A stretch of 63,990 bases of DNA, filler included. It is 5 parts of 5 records of this genome, joined end to end, with 100 filler letters (N's around TTAATTAATTAA, not from the genome) between each part and the next. Parts side by side here need not be neighbours in the genome. Positions count along the whole stretch, not along the records: positions 57,959 to 63,990 come from SRR31156797_10372; 4 more parts are not named here. One strand, written 5' to 3'. Positions 15,497 through 63,990 of the stretch are shown here, piece by piece. The notes below the pieces were generated by a model. That model was not told the origin of the DNA. It worked only from the letters and a program-made list of their open reading frames with translations, and made no database searches. The translations under genes were made by a program, and so were the position numbers. The stretch's first letter is position 1; every line of letters starts with the position of its first letter.

Positions 15497-15792
15497 ATCG
15501 TCCGGTAAAACAAGATTATAAAAGACCTACGCATATAAAAGATTTTCCTGTTGGACCACAATTTGATGCGGGTCACCTGGCTGATGAAAATGCTGGATGG
15601 CGCACATTCAAGCCTGTCGTGGATACTGAAAAGTGCATTAACTGTTTGATTTGTTACCTCGTTTGTCCTGATGGAACAATTGTAAAAGAAGAAAACCATG
15701 TAAGTGTAGCTTACGATTATTGTAAAGGTTGTGGAGTTTGTGCTAACGAATGTCCTAAAGATGCTATAAGTATGGTAAAAGATGAGCGCTAA
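15493..15792 (+). CDS. porD: 2-oxoacid:ferredoxin oxidoreductase delta subunit (2x[4Fe-4S])
   Basis: WRTFKP, CINCLICYLVCP, CKGCGVCANECP. Confidence 0.92.
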   Translation: MNRPVKQDYKRPTHIKDFPVGPQFDAGHLADENAGWRTFKPVVDTEKCINCLICYLVCPDGTIVKEENHVSVAYDYCKGCGVCANECPKDAISMVKDER

Positions 15793-15858
15793 AATTCTAA
15801 ATATTGAATAGGTATTATATTAATAATGAAATTCGATAATACTATTTTAAAAAAGATA

Positions 15859-15912
15859 ACAGAAGACAGAAAACAGAAGACAGAATATTAAAACGCTGTA
15901 TTCTGTATTCTT
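15859..15912. repeat. Heptamer tandem repeat (ACAGAAN)x4 followed by an inverted (TCTGTAT-like) array
   Basis: acagaag acagaaa acagaag acagaat ... ctgtattctgtattct. Confidence 0.7.
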
Positions 15913-15967
15913 GGATATAAAATCACTCTGCTTAAACACATAATTACAACCTATATTAAAAACTAAG

Positions 15968-57958: not shown

Positions 57959-58002
57959 ACATGCAAAAACCGCACGTCGCTTTGGTCGTAAATCCGTTAG
58001 GC
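57959..58002 (+). mobile_element. attC site 0 (3' half)
   Basis: Ends in GTTAGGC (GTTRRRY); first 20 bp identical to 60959-60978 in attC3. Confidence 0.8.
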
Positions 58003-58044
58003 GACATATAATTTTCGAAATTAACAGATAAGAGGTGGAATGTT

Positions 58045-58818
58045 TTGAGATATTTTTTTAGTAGCGGGAATAGGAAATTGTCATATATTGATTATGGAGG
58101 ACAAGGACCAGTAGTGATTGCCTTACATGGTCACTTTGGATGCGCTTCAATGTATAGCCAATTGGCGAGTGATCTAGGTAATCGGTGTAGAGTTATTGCA
58201 TTGGATCAGCAAGGGCATGGATTTAGCGGTTTGGGAAAGAACTATACTAGAGAAGATTATATTGAAGATATTAATGAACTATATGGAGAATTGGGAATAG
58301 ATAGTGCAATTCTTATAGGTCATTCACTAGGAGGCGTCAATGCATATCAATTTGCAGTACGATATCCGGATAAGGTTGAACAATTGGTAGTTGAAGATAT
58401 TGGTGCGATTGTAGATGATGATTTGAGTTTTATATTGGAATGGCCAAAAACTTTCGAGAGCGCAAGAACAGCTTTCACTTTTCTTAAGAATAATGGAGTA
58501 GATAATTTCCTGTACTTTATGGAAAGCATGGTTCATGAAGATGATGGTTGGAAATTTATGTTTGATTCAAGAGGGATAGTAGAATCCCAGAAGAAGCTTA
58601 ACGGTAATTGGATAGATGATTGGAAGCGAATATCTTGTGATACATTATTACTTAACGGCGGTAGATCAGATGTATTAAGTAAAGAGCAGGCGAATGAGAT
58701 TACTAAAATGAATAAGAATGTATCTTTAGTTAGATTTAAAGAAGCAGGTCATACCATTAGAGATGATGACTATTGTGGTTATAAAACTGCAATTACTGAG
58801 TTTATTGGGGTGAGCTGA
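58045..58818 (+). CDS. Alpha/beta hydrolase (cassette 1)
   Basis: LHG, DQQGHG.S, GHSLGG, AGH; TTG start with GAGGTGG RBS. Confidence 0.9.
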   Translation: MRYFFSSGNRKLSYIDYGGQGPVVIALHGHFGCASMYSQLASDLGNRCRVIALDQQGHGFSGLGKNYTREDYIEDINELYGELGIDSAILIGHSLGGVNAYQFAVRYPDKVEQLVVEDIGAIVDDDLSFILEWPKTFESARTAFTFLKNNGVDNFLYFMESMVHEDDGWKFMFDSRGIVESQKKLNGNWIDDWKRISCDTLLLNGGRSDVLSKEQANEITKMNKNVSLVRFKEAGHTIRDDDYCGYKTAITEFIGVS

Positions 58819-58848
58819 GATTTATCTAGGATTGTCAGATTATACGTT

Positions 58849-58925
58849 GCCTAACAGCAAATTGACAACATGGCCGTTATTATCGAAAGGACGGCACACG
58901 CTCGTCAACTCACAGGACATTATGA
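58849..58925 (+). mobile_element. attC site 1 (77 bp)
   Basis: GCCTAAC...TTGAC..GCCGT..ACGGC..GTCAA...CAGGAC-ATTATGA. Confidence 0.8.
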
Positions 58926-58967
58926 GAAACAAACTAACTAGAATTATTAAACTAAGGAGGAAGCTTT

Positions 58968-59600
58968 ATGAAATTACGTAAGCTAATTAATTATTGCGGT
59001 ATGATTAGTTATTTTATTTTATTCACTTTGCCAATATATTTACTTAGACATACCAATCTAACAACTTCAATGGAATTTATTTTATGTATTCATTTAGTAA
59101 TTACTCCTATAATTTTAAGACATTTTTTAATAAGTAATTTTTTTTATTTAGTTAAATCTAATACAGCTGAAGCTTGTGTTTATGCTGATACTGAATTTTT
59201 AGATTTTATTCCAGCTATAGGTCCTATTTTCTTTTTTAACCTACTTGCTTTTTTTATAATTAAAGAAAGTAACTTAGTCTTTTTTTTAGTTTTTTCTATA
59301 ATTTCTTTTAATTATTGTTATCGGTTTATAAGCTTTTTTATTTGTGCAGAAACAAATCTATATATAATGAAATTAAATAGTATTAAAATAATAAAGATAA
59401 TCGACATAAAACGCGTTAGCCCTTCTTATTCTATGACAAATTTTACTAGAGGTGGACGTAATTATAAGTATACTAGCGGTGTTTATATTGAGTTACACAA
59501 TGAAAAGCCTATTCACTTAATCGGTTTTTTTAACTCAAAAAGTGTTAAGTCTATATTTGAAAATATAAATAAATATCAATCAGTTACTTCAAACGATTAA
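58968..59600 (+). CDS. Hypothetical membrane protein (cassette 2)
   Basis: AAGGAGG RBS; about 4 TM; very AT-rich. Confidence 0.7.
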   Translation: MKLRKLINYCGMISYFILFTLPIYLLRHTNLTTSMEFILCIHLVITPIILRHFLISNFFYLVKSNTAEACVYADTEFLDFIPAIGPIFFFNLLAFFIIKESNLVFFLVFSIISFNYCYRFISFFICAETNLYIMKLNSIKIIKIIDIKRVSPSYSMTNFTRGGRNYKYTSGVYIELHNEKPIHLIGFFNSKSVKSIFENINKYQSVTSND

Positions 59601-59802
59601 TTTTATTAGTTATATAAAAGTTCTTTTTTATTTTTAATCTATCCAACTTATAACTATCTTAACACTTTTATAAGCATAAGTTACATGAATCTTAAAACAA
59701 TTGGAAAAATAGTAACAAATTTAGAGTTTTTTCTATCGTGGGAAGAAACTTTTACCCTGTTCTCAAAAAACATGTTAAAAACATAATAAGCATTCTAAAA
59801 TC

Positions 59803-59862
59803 TCATAACACACGGCAGATTCCATGAAAAACGCACGGCATCTGTCCGTCAGGACATTATAG
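59803..59862 (+). mobile_element. attC site 2 (60 bp)
   Basis: TCATAAC-acACGGCAGAT...ATCTG(T)CCGT-CAGGAC-ATTATAG with one unpaired base. Confidence 0.8.
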
Positions 59863-59923
59863 AAAATTATAACTAAAAAAATATTACACTTTAATTTTTA
59901 AAGGGGGTATCAATATTTATACT

Positions 59924-60934
59924 TTGAAAAGTTCTACAATTAATGCATTAAGTTCAATTTACCTCCATTTAACAGTGGTCATTATTATTAGTTTTTTCTT
60001 TGTTAGAAACTCTACATTAAACGAAAAATTTATCATTACCAAGATTATTACTCTTTGGGGTATTTTTTTGACAAACTTCTTAATAGATTCTGTTGAAAAA
60101 ATCATTCTAAAGAAAAACTTTAGAAACAAAAAATATGATTTTCATGAGAAATTTGTAGTGGTTAATTCGTATGATAAGCCTTTTCTTTCAGATACTACAG
60201 TTTTTGAAATCTATTCGTCAATGATATTAATTTTAATTTGTTTTTTAAATAATAATCAGACAATATTAATTCTTCTTCTTTACTTCAGTATAAGAATATT
60301 AAAAAGAAATTTTATTTACATCTTTGATTTAAAAGAAAATAATATTTCAATTGGAGAAATACCTATTTCTATTAATAAAAGAATTTGGATTTCTAATTCT
60401 GATTTAGGAAACATTGCATTTAGTTTAACAGAATCAAGAAAAATAAAAACAATTAACATGAATATCCTTTCTAGGACTTACAACCGGGGTAAAAGAAATA
60501 TTTCAAACAATTATGAAAAAAATTATTACAATATGCATATTATTACTGAAAACTTAAATAATATTTATATTGAATTAGGAACAACCATTTCAAATATAAA
60601 AAAAGATGACTTTTTAGAAGAAAGTACGATAGTAAATTATTCTTTAAACTCAAAAAATAAAAACCAAGAGAATAATATTAACATTCGCAATATAGTTGAT
60701 TTTTTTAATAAAAGCATGAATATATTTATAAAAGTCAGAAAAAAAAACCATATTTTAACCAGCTATTTATTCCCTGTTCTATCTATGTTTTTTGTGTTTA
60801 TAACTATAGTAATGTTCTTTGGGGATTTTAAATTATTATCAAGAAATAATTTTTTTATATTAACAGTTTTTCTTTCAGTAATAAATCTCATTTTAGAGAT
60901 TAATATTAGATTCAAATGGAAACTAATGTCTTAA
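59924..60934 (+). CDS. Hypothetical membrane protein (cassette 3)
   Basis: 336-aa ORF with N- and C-terminal TM segments; stop 4 nt before attC3. Confidence 0.65.
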   Translation: MKSSTINALSSIYLHLTVVIIISFFFVRNSTLNEKFIITKIITLWGIFLTNFLIDSVEKIILKKNFRNKKYDFHEKFVVVNSYDKPFLSDTTVFEIYSSMILILICFLNNNQTILILLLYFSIRILKRNFIYIFDLKENNISIGEIPISINKRIWISNSDLGNIAFSLTESRKIKTINMNILSRTYNRGKRNISNNYEKNYYNMHIITENLNNIYIELGTTISNIKKDDFLEESTIVNYSLNSKNKNQENNINIRNIVDFFNKSMNIFIKVRKKNHILTSYLFPVLSMFFVFITIVMFFGDFKLLSRNNFFILTVFLSVINLILEINIRFKWKLMS

Positions 60935-60938
60935 GAAT

Positions 60939-61002
60939 CTATAACATGCTGACAGTCAACATGCAAAAACCGCACGTCAGTTAGGTCACAGGAGCGTTAT
61001 AT
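60939..61002 (+). mobile_element. attC site 3 (64 bp)
   Basis: CTATAAC...ACATGCAAAAACCGCACGTC...TCACAGGAGC-GTTATAT. Confidence 0.8.
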
Positions 61003-61033
61003 ACAATTAAAAAAATTATCTCTTGGAGGATTT

Positions 61034-61750
61034 ATGGAACTTGAAAGTAAATATCAAGAAATGTCTAATGAGAAGCTTTTTAAAAAATATGAAGATTTAC
61101 TCTTCTTTACGGAACTCGAGCAGAAGATCATTATCCGTGAAAGAGAGAAAAGATTAGTTTGTTTAAAAGTAAAGAATGGTAATAATGAAAAAACAAAACC
61201 ATTAACAGGAATGCGTAAAATATTTGGTTGGATTTTTGTCCTATTTCTTCTTTCAATAATAATAAATGGATTCATTAATTATTTTAACGGTTTCTATAAA
61301 AATATAGAAGTCAACTCATTTGTGAAGATTCTCCCTTACACATTTCTTATCTCCATAGTATTATTTATTATTCTTAGGTTAATTTTTGGAAAAATTTGGG
61401 ATGTATTTTTAATTGATTTTATTTGTATAAATTTGTTCTTCATGATAATTCTTCCAGATGGACTACTAATGAATATTAACAATTTCCATGAAAAAAGAGA
61501 GGTTATTTTTAAAGGAAGAGTTACACGTTTCTATAGTCATTATAGAAAAGGGAGTTGTATTGAAATTAGTAATTCAAATTCTAAACTTAATATATATCTA
61601 AATAGAAAAAGAAATTATCAAATTTCTAATAAGGTGAGTAATTTCAAAGATGCTTATATCGAAATAGAAATTAAAGAAGGAATCTTTGGTGTGTTTTTCA
61701 ATCCTAAAATTCTCAAAATCGAAAATAAAAATATTAGGATTAAATTTTAA
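61034..61750 (+). CDS. Hypothetical membrane protein (cassette 4)
   Basis: GGAGG RBS; three TM segments. Confidence 0.7.
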   Translation: MELESKYQEMSNEKLFKKYEDLLFFTELEQKIIIREREKRLVCLKVKNGNNEKTKPLTGMRKIFGWIFVLFLLSIIINGFINYFNGFYKNIEVNSFVKILPYTFLISIVLFIILRLIFGKIWDVFLIDFICINLFFMIILPDGLLMNINNFHEKREVIFKGRVTRFYSHYRKGSCIEISNSNSKLNIYLNRKRNYQISNKVSNFKDAYIEIEIKEGIFGVFFNPKILKIENKNIRIKF

Positions 61751-61813
61751 ATGAAGAAGGAAATCGATTATTTAAAAATATTTGCATAAATATACATTTG
61801 AGGTGAAAAATAG

Positions 61814-62248
61814 ATGAACCGTTTTAAAATGAATGTCGCTGTACATTTATTTCTTGAAAAGAATGATAAAATCTTACTCTTGAGAAGATTTAATACAGGA
61901 TATCAGGATGGAAATTATAGTGTAATTGCAGGGCGTATTGATGGGCAGGAAGATTTTGTTTCAGCAATTATTAGAGAAGCAAAAGAGGAAGCTGGTATAA
62001 TATTGACAGAAGATGACGTTACCCCAATTCAAGTAATGCATCGAAAAAAAATAGATAGTGAGTATATTGATTACTTCTTCCATGCAAAATCATGGAAAAA
62101 TAGAATTGAAAATATGGAACCAGATAAATGTGATGAACTGAGTTGGTATAATAAAAATGAATTACCAACAAATATAATCCCATATATCAGAGCCGCGATA
62201 ATGAATTATTCCGAAAACAAAGTATTTACAAAATTTGGTTGGGAGTAA
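61814..62248 (+). CDS. NUDIX hydrolase
   Basis: Nudix box G.IDGQE....AIIREAKEEAG; NMEPDKC. Confidence 0.92.
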   Translation: MNRFKMNVAVHLFLEKNDKILLLRRFNTGYQDGNYSVIAGRIDGQEDFVSAIIREAKEEAGIILTEDDVTPIQVMHRKKIDSEYIDYFFHAKSWKNRIENMEPDKCDELSWYNKNELPTNIIPYIRAAIMNYSENKVFTKFGWE

Positions 62249-62368
62249 ATTAGTAACTTTTTTAAATAAAATTTTAATTGTTCTACATTTTAAAAACTTA
62301 TGAAAAGTATTTTGCTTAAGTTATGTATTTGTTAGGTAATAAAATAATAAAAAAATTAAAGGAGAATC

Positions 62369-62830
62369 ATGAATAATAAACTTAATTTTTATATTACTAA
62401 ATTTAACCAAATGGAATTTAATATACTAAAAAAAATTCTAATAAAAAAAGTTTATATACTTTGTAGTCCAGAAAATTTTCTTTTTTCGTGTAATGAGAAT
62501 CTTCAACAAGTTATGACTACAATTGAAATTTCTAAAGAAAGAAATAGAGTTGTTTCTGTAGGAGAACCTTTCATAGATACTATTAAGAATGAGTGCATTA
62601 ACTTATTTGATTTAAATCTACAAATAGACGAAGAAGAATATCTTTTATACCTTCAAAGTTATTTACTATATTTCACTCGAAAAGTTGCTAAAAATTTATT
62701 AATTAAACCCATTGTCATTATTTGCGAATCTGATAGTCTACCCAATAATTTTAACACAAGTCAAAAAGAACTACTTAGAAAGGCTCTTCTAAATCTAGAA
62801 ATAGATAATTCTATTTTTATAGATAAATAA
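62369..62830 (+). CDS. Hypothetical protein
   Basis: AAGGAG RBS; 153 aa; no motif recognised. Confidence 0.6.
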   Translation: MNNKLNFYITKFNQMEFNILKKILIKKVYILCSPENFLFSCNENLQQVMTTIEISKERNRVVSVGEPFIDTIKNECINLFDLNLQIDEEEYLLYLQSYLLYFTRKVAKNLLIKPIVIICESDSLPNNFNTSQKELLRKALLNLEIDNSIFIDK

Positions 62831-62877
62831 GCTTATCATAGATGTCGCTAAGCTAGAACTAAAAATAAGGGGAAGTT

Positions 62878-63495
62878 ATGAATAAAATTTATATTATACA
62901 ACATTGTCAATCTGAACATCATGTAAACGAATTAACTGGTGGGTGGACGGATACACCATTAACACAATTAGGTATGAAGCAAGCTCAACAAGTTGCGAAT
63001 GAATTAAAAAATCTGGGAGTCGAAAAGGATTTTGAGCTGTATTCTTCTGATTTAAAAAGAGCAAGTATGACAGCAGAAGCAATTGAGAAGAAGTTTAATG
63101 TGGAGATGATTTTAGATAAATCATTAAGAGAACACAATAACGGAAAAGCAGCTAATAAATCTGGAGAATGGGCTAGGAAAAATTTTCTCTATCACTCTTC
63201 AAGAATCGAGTTAGATAAACCTTTGTGGGAAAATGCTGAAACATATAGAGAATTATATAATAGAATGAAAGAATTTAAGACTAGAGTGATTGATAAATCA
63301 GTGAAGGATATAATCATAGTGTCGCATGGTGTAGCTATTGGATACCTGATCTGGGCATATCTTAATATTGAGTGCGACCTTGTTGTAGAGTCATTTATAC
63401 GTGGTGGTGCTGGTGGAGTATCAATCTTATCAAAAAGTCCAATGGGACAAAACACTTTGAATTTATTTAATTCTAGTGCGCACCTGAATTTCTAA
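62878..63495 (+). CDS. Histidine phosphatase family protein
   Basis: QHCQS (RHG-equivalent), DTPLT..G..QA, SSDLKRA, LRE, VSHG. Confidence 0.88.
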   Translation: MNKIYIIQHCQSEHHVNELTGGWTDTPLTQLGMKQAQQVANELKNLGVEKDFELYSSDLKRASMTAEAIEKKFNVEMILDKSLREHNNGKAANKSGEWARKNFLYHSSRIELDKPLWENAETYRELYNRMKEFKTRVIDKSVKDIIIVSHGVAIGYLIWAYLNIECDLVVESFIRGGAGGVSILSKSPMGQNTLNLFNSSAHLNF

Positions 63496-63513
63496 CAGAA
63501 TGGAGCATACACA

Positions 63514-63927
63514 ATGATAAAAATAAGAGAAGTTATAGACAAAGATTTAGAATCTTTACTAATTCTGGATAAACATGTTAATAAAGAAATTCTTAAGAAA
63601 AAAATTAGAGATAAAGAGATTATTGTTTTACTTCAAGATAATGAAATAATTGGATGGTTAAGATACAGCTTCTTTTGGGATGAACACCCATTTATGAATA
63701 TGCTGTTCATAATTGATGAGTATAGAGCAAAAGGTTACGGTACTAAACTTACACTTTATTGGGAAAAGTTGATGTTAGAAAGAGGATATAAAACTCTTAT
63801 GCTTAGCACACAATCAAATGAATACTCACAGCATTTTTATAGAAAATTAGGTTATACAGATGTGGGCAGCTTCAGTATGCACAATGAACCACTGGAATTA
63901 ATTCTGATTAAGGAATTGAGTAAATAG
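63514..63927 (+). CDS. GNAT family N-acetyltransferase
   Basis: YRAKGYG, STQSNE.SQHFYRKLGY. Confidence 0.9.
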   Translation: MIKIREVIDKDLESLLILDKHVNKEILKKKIRDKEIIVLLQDNEIIGWLRYSFFWDEHPFMNMLFIIDEYRAKGYGTKLTLYWEKLMLERGYKTLMLSTQSNEYSQHFYRKLGYTDVGSFSMHNEPLELILIKELSK

Positions 63928-63990
63928 ACAAATGGAGAAAACAATGAGAAATCAAAAACACACGCCGCAAGCGGACGGGGTATGGTGTAG

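Follow-up and report, generated by a model that had tools for sequence, protein, structure and literature searches.

Integrons are defined and counted by way of an integrase, IntI, that carries a specific inserted domain. In the available part of one preprint, this IntI-specific insertion is called defining and necessary (Ghaly 2022). It is also tied to single-strand recombination in the accessible text of a further article (eLife 2020). On this basis, Bacteroidota have been reported as almost free of integrons. Briefly, for Bacteroidetes proper, the available part of the IntegronFinder 2.0 preprint gives only In0 and one Salinibacter integron, and Fusobacteria go unmentioned there (Néron 2022). 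Fusobacteriota are also missing from the phylum list of a 2021 integron review. Here, we describe an array of gene cassettes, separated by attC-like recombination sites, in a stretch of assembled DNA that is 63,990 nucleotides long (hereafter, the window). The window is made of five contigs joined by N linkers. The array lies on the last contig, from position 57959 to position 63990 (6032 bases), which is one whole assembly contig in the source run, with a depth of 35. We consider it probable that this contig is a fragment of an integron-like cassette array. The cognate enzyme most likely belongs to an IntI/XerA-like family without the insertion, rather than being a classical IntI. Note that we found no description of a lineage combining an insertion-less recombinase with such an array in the literature searched, a search that had subscription journals outside its scope.

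Results

Palindromic sites and cassette boundaries

An earlier note on this DNA, made from the letters alone, reported four related palindromes between co-oriented open reading frames (ORFs) with ribosome-binding sites. All four are in place on reading the sequence. The sites, and the cassette boundary at the first of them, are as follows.

57959-58002, plus strand: site 0, an attC-like site of which the contig start leaves only the 3' part; R' box GTTAGGC at 57996-58002
Between 57996 and 57997, plus strand: cassette boundary at site 0
58849-58925, plus strand: attC-like site 1 (77 nt); R'' box GCCTAAC, R' box ATTATGA; 4-nt one-sided bulge after 4 pairs, with the R box forced
59803-59862, plus strand: attC-like site 2 (60 nt); R'' box TCATAAC, R' box ATTATAG; bulge 4/0
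60939-61002, plus strand: attC-like site 3 (64 nt); R'' box CTATAAC, R' box GTTATAT; weakest hairpin; bulge 4/0

The R'' box contains AAC in all three complete sites. The R' box contains GTT in sites 0 and 3, with ATT in the other two sites. A relaxed core pattern, CATG..AAAA..GCACG, has three matches in the 63,990-base window. All are on the plus strand and fall at sites 0, 2, and 3; the number expected, from 100 shuffles, was 0.00. The core of site 1 is a variant of this pattern. Hence, the CATG..CACG cores that the earlier note assigned to the sites hold for three of the four. The CAGGA-containing 3' ends noted for sites 1 to 3 are present. No T-run was found 3' of the hairpins on reading the sites. 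Rfam searches of the array contig (E ≤ 10), and of four related loci (E ≤ 0.1), gave no family matches. The attC family is distinctive, as the earlier note proposed.

The boundaries between cassettes have the signature of circular cassettes that a tyrosine recombinase has inserted. Across the 8 nt beyond the GTT/AAC cores, the start of each cassette is complementary to its own end at 6/8, 6/8, and 5/8 positions, with runs from the core of 4, 6, and 5. Complementarity between the two halves of one site is only 3/8, 3/8, and 4/8 (sites 1 to 3). The own-cassette partner is thus preferred in three cases out of three, as had been claimed, and the complementarity falls exactly at the hairpin edges.

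Two search strategies were dropped. A genome-wide search for chains of complementary boundaries used a loose rule (6 free bases, at most 1 mismatch). This gave 63 links in the real window, and 5-12 links in shuffles, and was not kept as a statistic. Scans for hairpins, whether by energy or by energy density, failed to find sites 1 and 3 and took unrelated AT-rich hairpins.

Related sites abut a tyrosine recombinase gene in Ilyobacter

Across the genome collection, the 20-mer common to sites 0 and 3 matches a single record. This is a 1.69-Mb contig from the metagenome-assembled genome (MAG) of an uncultured Ilyobacter (genome G001, locus L001). Site 2 and L001 7560-7619 are identical at 50 of 60 positions. 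Site 0 and L001 10001-10044 are identical at 39 of 44 positions, and site 3 matches L001 9981-10044 in 48 of 65 alignment columns. BLASTN identities of window sites to related sites are 92% (over 53 nt, for site 2) and 90%. The Ilyobacter sites that are 83-89% identical to window sites 2 and 0 stand in a co-oriented cassette array. The array has five links at which cassette start and own end can be compared. Complementarity is 7/8 at the first (read by hand), 6/8 at three, and 3/8 at the fifth.

The same strand of the Ilyobacter contig encodes a 352-aa tyrosine recombinase, and the array starts at a G/TTA junction (the slash marks the boundary) approximately 70 nt past the stop codon of its gene. 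The intervening DNA contains short GCGTATA-like repeats. This MAG is the only genome found with the window attC types next to a recombinase. The best NCBIfam model for the protein is NF040815 (XerA; ‘site-specific tyrosine recombinase/integron integrase’), with 238 bits and a cut-off of 220. With the integron-integrase model TIGR02249, the score is 225 bits, below the cut-off of 265, and the match is in two stretches that skip profile positions 181-238. The closest solved relative, by sequence and by predicted fold, is VchIntIA (2a3v), and archaeal XerA is next. A stretch of 63 residues in 2a3v corresponds to only 21 in the Ilyobacter recombinase. Similarly, alignment with IntI1 (32% identity) has a 43-residue gap where the IntI-specific insertion sits. 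None of the 13 Ilyobacter genome proteins that match TIGR02249 is above its cut-off. The earlier note supposed that the cassettes had been circles, inserted by an IntI enzyme. The boundary signature is indeed that of tyrosine-recombinase cassettes. The enzyme is probably not a classical IntI, given the missing insertion, the TIGR02249 result, and the site geometry described below.

The recombinase has an extra N-terminal domain of approximately 80 residues, predicted to form two beta hairpins and two helices. Foldseek gave nothing at E ≤ 0.001 for this domain; the top row was the SMARCAL1 HARP domain (E 0.029). The Pfam HARP model scored 22 bits, with a cut-off of 25. The best VIA-align Z score was 6.2, in a range that the tool calls common, and the N-terminal domains of XPB and UvsW had Z scores of 5.7. 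The SMARCAL1 HARP domain, and the N-terminal domains of XPB and UvsW, share a structure-specific DNA-binding fold. We treat the HARP-type resemblance as a weak lead only.

The Ilyobacter cassettes encode a reverse transcriptase with a SLATT protein, a trio of radical-SAM, phosphoribosyltransferase and NUDIX proteins, a ferredoxin-type protein, and a methyltransferase. Further along the array, an element of the IS3 insertion sequence (IS) family is inserted. A single cassette (L001 5598-7553) contains the reverse transcriptase gene, then that for the SLATT_5 effector protein, with two transmembrane segments. The pair resembles a phage-defence module in cassette form. Two copies of an approximately 200-nt repeat, rich in cgtgacaaaa-like words, are at L001 2215-2420, upstream of the recombinase gene, and at 15740-15940, approximately 13 kb downstream within or after the array. 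The two copies might mark the ends of a mobile unit, or simply be a repeat that is common in the host.

A second Fusobacteriota genome, G095, has one more site of the window type between co-oriented ORFs. The site type is not dispersed: a 76-nt query matches one place in the Ilyobacter genome and one in G095. Both genomes also have separate Xer-like genes (approximately 31% identity). As the earlier note had stated, there is no integrase in view in the window itself. Searches by tblastn with the family recombinase and IntI1 as queries detected no tyrosine recombinase, of either kind, anywhere in the window (best E values 1.9 and 0.88).

The recombinase family and its arrays at large

Relatives of the Ilyobacter recombinase are numerous. 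Among 8000 scored candidates, 7959 reach E ≤ 1e-30. Most are approximately 347 aa in length and approximately 48% identical, full length and gap-free. Where sources are named, they are mostly Flavobacterium and other Bacteroidota. A metagenome scan gave 558 relatives, from which 80 loci were kept. The 150 nt downstream of the gene were inspected for 77 of these; the remaining three were dropped, with the gene running to the locus end. At most of the 77 loci there is a TATA-rich stretch ending AG/TTA, and many of the contigs end shortly after. With sufficient downstream DNA (38 loci), the junction is detected by a strict regular expression in 27, and by eye in several of the other 11. A conserved junction, with arrays behind it, is therefore observed at many loci. 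Following the cassette rule from the 27 junctions gave 44 sites, 36 of which, in 17 loci, have a folding energy of -15 kcal/mol or lower. The longest runs are of 8 (L094), 7 (L052), and 5 (L033) consecutive cassettes, with homologous sites of approximately 127 nt. Note that we trusted metagenome chains only if their sites are homologous repeats and fold strongly.

Some loci have features worth recording in their own right. A Chryseobacterium plasmid (NZ_CP041688.1, locus L097) encodes a 47.5%-identical member of the family, followed by small co-oriented ORFs. At L097 16215-17267 and 18676-20048, left-box sequences of cassette sites are directly followed by an IS110-family transposase gene and by a group II intron, the latter antisense to the cassettes. 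IS110-family elements and group II introns target attC sites in classical integrons. A perfect minimal hairpin of 38 nt (GTTGGG...CCCAAC) follows the attI junction of the same locus and occurs at three further places. In Fusobacteriota genome G134, L015 1450-2010 encodes only the C-terminal 186 aa of a recombinase. The conserved junction is kept, and nucleotidyltransferase-type, defence-like ORFs are next.

Fold geometry and covariation of the sites

The earlier note proposed folding of the bottom strands as a check. Energies for the bottom and top strands, respectively, are -12.2 and -10.3 kcal/mol for site 1, -9.8 and -6.9 for site 2, and -6.0 and -4.9 for site 3. The bottom strand is therefore the more stable at all three complete sites. 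Compared to shuffles, bottom-strand z scores are -2.94, -3.60, and -0.94 for sites 1 to 3; only two of the sites fold clearly better. The bottom strand is also the more stable in 36 of 36 Bacteroidota-type sites from the metagenome loci, 4 of 4 Ilyobacter sites, and both class 1 control sites.

To compare geometry, bottom strands were folded with the AAC/GTT pairs forced. In all three window sites, the four-pair R box is followed by 4 bulged nt on the 5' (R'-L') arm, with 0 nt opposite. The same 4/0 bulge is found in 2 of 4 Ilyobacter sites, with 3/0 in a third. Among the 36 Bacteroidota-type sites, 24 have the 4/0 bulge and 28 have a one-sided bulge of 2-4 nt. Classical attC sites differ. Extrahelical bases belong, by the definition in the available part of Bouvier (2009), to the R''-L'' arm. 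Consistent with this, the identical script gave 5x4 and 4x4 spacers, and one extra base on the R''-L'' arm, for two class 1 sites from a plasmid, and these two are the only classical controls. For a Gemmatirosa plasmid, intended as a second control, no array was detected upstream of the integrase gene. Classical geometry, with a central spacer on two arms and extrahelical bases on the R''-L'' arm, was found at none of the three window sites.

Covariation supports the one-sided-bulge fold. A set of 24 long sites, from 12 loci and out of the 36, was analysed with RNAalifold. The consensus has the same lower stem, with compensatory changes at 15 of 21 pairs. At two pairs, G.U is kept in 23 of the 24 sites; the top strand would have A.C mismatches. 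Six short sites, three of them from the window, have the same geometry, 10 compensated pairs out of 21, and G.U at the closing pair in 6 of 6. Note that, in this alignment, MAFFT misplaces the 3' end of site 1. The conserved G.T wobbles favour one DNA strand.

Cassettes and the downstream block

On the array contig, all 9 coding-strand ORFs of at least 60 aa are co-oriented, with GGAGG-type ribosome-binding sites upstream. The cassettes, the block that follows, and the end of the contig are listed here.

57997-58919, plus strand: cassette 1, with an alpha/beta-hydrolase ORF at 58045-58818 (257 aa; Pfam Abhydrolase_1, E 4e-21) and its own attC; ends complementary at 6/8
58920-59856, plus strand: cassette 2, with an ORF at 58968-59600 (210 aa, hydrophobic N-terminal part, no family), approximately 200 nt free of ORFs, and its own attC; ends complementary at 6/8, run of 6
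59857-60996, plus strand: cassette 3, with an ORF at 59924-60934 (336 aa, very AT-rich, no family) and attC; ends complementary at 5/8, run of 5
60997-63947, plus strand: block of five co-oriented ORFs with no recognisable site in between
61034-61750, plus strand: block ORF, no family
61814-62248, plus strand: block ORF, NUDIX
62369-62830, plus strand: block ORF, no known identity
62878-63495, plus strand: block ORF, histidine phosphatase
63514-63927, plus strand: block ORF, GNAT
63948-63990, plus strand: contig-end repeat of 43 bases, multi-copy in the source run

The ORFs at 58968-59600, 59924-60934, and 61034-61750 are very AT-rich (GC content approximately 0.24), with hydrophobic N-terminal parts and no Pfam or PADLOC family. 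Across 8 ORFs, PADLOC gave a weak NUDIX-type match only. The end coordinate given by the earlier note, 61750, is the end of an ORF, rather than of a cassette, and no site follows the 61034-61750 ORF. Reading the contig downstream of site 3 revealed no complement of the site 3 R' extension. The five-ORF block is either one multi-gene cassette, or cassettes with decayed sites, or flank beyond the array.

Source-run contigs and the likely host

Other contigs of the source run, with depths of 27-41, share only site 0, site 2, or the last 43 bases with the array contig. The site 0 piece alone is common to two of these. The final 43 bases are the sole piece common to at least four others, with a summed word depth of 803 compared to 35 for the contig; depth bins are sums over contigs, and we do not take them as copy numbers. 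This repeat has a single copy in the window and is absent from the 98 loci examined. It may be the 5' (left) half of a different, more abundant site type. The array contig is thus bounded by repeats at both ends. These patterns fit a larger array that would have been broken at repeated sites during assembly, and suggest many well-kept site copies in the sample. They also fit the word ‘sedentary’, used of the integron by the earlier note, with many same-run contigs sharing sites at similar depth. Seen as a cluster of attC sites, the 6-kb contig has three complete sites, one cut site and no recombinase. That absence may reflect an assembly break, with repeats at both ends.

The other contigs of the window appear to have a different source. 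The GC content of the array contig is 0.24-0.30, compared to approximately 0.30-0.40 across the others. GlmM from contig 4 is 89% identical to Salinivirgaceae proteins. Its identity to metagenome proteins is 89-92%, and these are from Salinivirgaceae wherever a name exists. Judged by sequence, contig 4 is Bacteroidales. Together, the other four contigs (1-57858) resemble a Bacteroidales (Salinivirgaceae-like) MAG. Upstream ribosome-binding sites are missing from the genes read on contig 4 and strong on the array contig. The NUDIX gene of the array contig is 68-76% identical, at the DNA level, to genes in three Fusobacteriota genomes (BLASTN). Note that the taxonomy of cassette genes is based on one protein search, and BLASTN against Fusobacteriota genomes only. 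Because the array contig has strong ribosome-binding sites, lower GC content, and sites of a type recurring in two Fusobacteriota genomes, it was probably mis-binned into the Bacteroidales MAG, and would come from a fusobacterium-like organism of the same sample. The suggestion that the contig is unlike its neighbours is therefore borne out. We infer a fusobacterium-like host rather than the Bacteroidales bin, although a Bacteroidales carrying foreign cassettes is possible.

Discussion

The anatomy of the sites, the signature at their boundaries, and their homology to sites in an array that abuts a recombinase gene, are all direct observations. So are the conserved junction and the arrays that follow the recombinase family in many loci, and the covariation of the fold. 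In the mechanism that we propose, a cassette would be an ORF plus the imperfect palindrome 3' of it. Recombination between two sites would cut cassettes out as circles, and these would be inserted at a primary site, attI. Crossover would occur just after the first base of the right-hand box, before its TT (G/TT or A/TT). The sites would act as folded bottom strands. In the predicted fold, a short R box (xAACG with TGTTx, and a closing G.T wobble) is followed by a 4-nt bulge, on the R'-L' arm only, and then the stem. The cognate enzyme would be an IntI/XerA-like tyrosine recombinase of approximately 350 aa, having no IntI-specific insertion and an N-terminal domain of approximately 80 aa. Its gene would precede the array on the same strand, and attI would lie approximately 70-110 nt past the stop codon. 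That recombination occurs, uses the bottom strand, and is performed by an Ilyobacter-type recombinase is what the DNA sequences lead us to infer.

Several observations weigh against this reading. Since the window holds no recombinase, the link to the recombinase family rests on site homology in another genome. A family member is present, at E ≤ 1e-40, in only 4 of 190 Fusobacteriota genomes, and one of the four, G134, has the truncated member that keeps its junction. G095 has the site type but only recombinases that are 31% identical. The named relatives of the histidine phosphatase on the array contig are Tenericutes, Firmicutes, and Asgard archaea, without Fusobacteriota. There is a single joint in one contig that ‘goes back’, from 59844 to 57966 (side 32). 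It more likely reflects a similar site elsewhere, and is no evidence of circles. The R' boxes of sites 1 and 2 open with A, where the textbook motif has G. Site 3 folds no better than shuffles (z of -0.94), and the last 3 kb of the array contig is without any recognised site. A fossil array of the same non-canonical lineage, with once-mobile cassettes, decayed sites, and a recombinase gone from the host, would account for these last features, for the matching site without a family recombinase in G095, and for the recombinase reduced to 186 aa in G134. Set against this, sites 1 and 2 fold well. Furthermore, several same-run contigs, at similar depth, carry the same site types, with the assembly breaking there. 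We regard a fossil as improbable.

The contig could instead be part of an ordinary integron array, or a cluster of attC sites lacking integrases (CALIN), with a classical IntI elsewhere in the host genome. In that case, the recombinase co-oriented with arrays in relatives would be incidental. Classical attC sites do share the AAC...GTT boxes, the rule at boundaries, and the preference for the bottom strand. A G also follows AAC on the bottom strand, as it does in most attC sites according to the available part of Bouvier (2009). However, in the Ilyobacter genome that shares the sites, no protein passes the integron-integrase cut-off. Its array abuts an insertion-less recombinase, at a junction conserved in many loci, and the folded sites have neither the symmetric spacer nor the extrahelical base of the class 1 controls. 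Hence, we think a classical IntI unlikely, if slightly less so than a fossil. A last explanation is that the palindromes have nothing to do with recombination and are intergenic repeats, for example repetitive extragenic palindromic (REP)-like elements or intrinsic terminators. The complementarity would then be chance in AT-rich DNA. Short complementary words are common in the AT-rich contig, and shuffles give long chains under the loose rule. Block shuffles of the array contig alone give 5-12 links, and the bare complementarity chain is not significant by itself. Consequently, our case rests on position at hairpins, site homology, and covariation. Energy-density scans, as noted, also take unrelated AT-rich hairpins. 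Yet, the hairpins have no T-run after them, each boundary prefers its own-cassette partner exactly at the hairpin edges, and the site type has one copy per genome in the Ilyobacter MAG and G095 rather than being dispersed. Moreover, the array that holds the homologous sites has a recombinase gene and an attI-like junction at its head, and the fold covaries with G.T wobbles conserved. Repeats or terminators are therefore a very improbable source of the pattern.

Our preferred reading, of an integron-like array served by an insertion-less recombinase, points to an overlooked integron lineage in Fusobacteriota and Bacteroidota. With somewhat more confidence than doubt, we propose that this is a second lineage of integrons with a very wide spread. 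It would be abundant in Bacteroidota, would occur in some Fusobacteriota too, and would extend to at least one Chryseobacterium plasmid. It would be invisible to censuses based on the IntI-specific domain. Its integrase would recombine folded, single-stranded sites without the I2 insertion, which is regarded as the central innovation of integron integrases, by means of the one-sided bulge next to the cleavage point, and perhaps the N-terminal domain that is weakly HARP-like. If so, phyla thought to be nearly integron-free have their own version. A parallel system, with thousands of recombinase relatives, would alter the estimated range of cassette-based gene capture. It would also test in nature whether single-strand recombination at hairpins really requires the I2 insertion, and would make new, compact sites and enzymes of recombination available for study.

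Comparison with known systems

Runs of the DUF1874 motif resemble the array in being a structured element in consecutive intergenic regions, with no integrase in view. In the available part of the description, they were proposed to be a possible unusual attC (Weinberg et al. 2017). The array sites differ in being simple hairpins, and in having no match to any Rfam family, DUF1874 included. Reverse-orientation integrons, typical of Spirochaetota IntIs, are alike in that the integrase is not divergent from the cassettes, and in having hosts outside Proteobacteria. Unlike the present system, they were found using IntegronFinder, which requires the IntI-specific domain, according to the accessible text of Ghaly (2022), and our comparison is with that description only.

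Xer recombinases, that is archaeal XerA and XerC/XerD, have the same core length and no IntI insertion. Structures of XerA rank directly after VchIntIA as relatives of the Ilyobacter enzyme. Xer enzymes resolve chromosome dimers at a single dif site. In contrast, the Ilyobacter-type family has an added N-terminal domain, a conserved junction after the gene, and cassette arrays behind.

Classical integrons, such as those of class 1 plasmids and Vibrio chromosomes, are the closest in organization. They too have co-oriented, mostly single-ORF cassettes that end in AAC...GTT imperfect palindromes. The G/TT crossover, complementarity of cassette start to own end, better folding of the bottom strand, and position of attI beside the recombinase gene are similarly shared. 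Their enzymes are related, with VchIntIA the nearest solved relative of the Ilyobacter recombinase and IntI1 32% identical to it. The Ilyobacter-type recombinase differs in having no IntI-specific insertion and an extra N-terminal domain. Its gene points towards the array, with attI past the stop codon. In the sites, the R'-L' arm alone has a bulge, of 4 nt, whereas classical sites have a symmetric spacer and extrahelical bases on the R''-L'' arm. Because the likely recombinase and the site geometry differ in two defining features, we file the system as a new variant that works like an integron, without being one in the strict sense.

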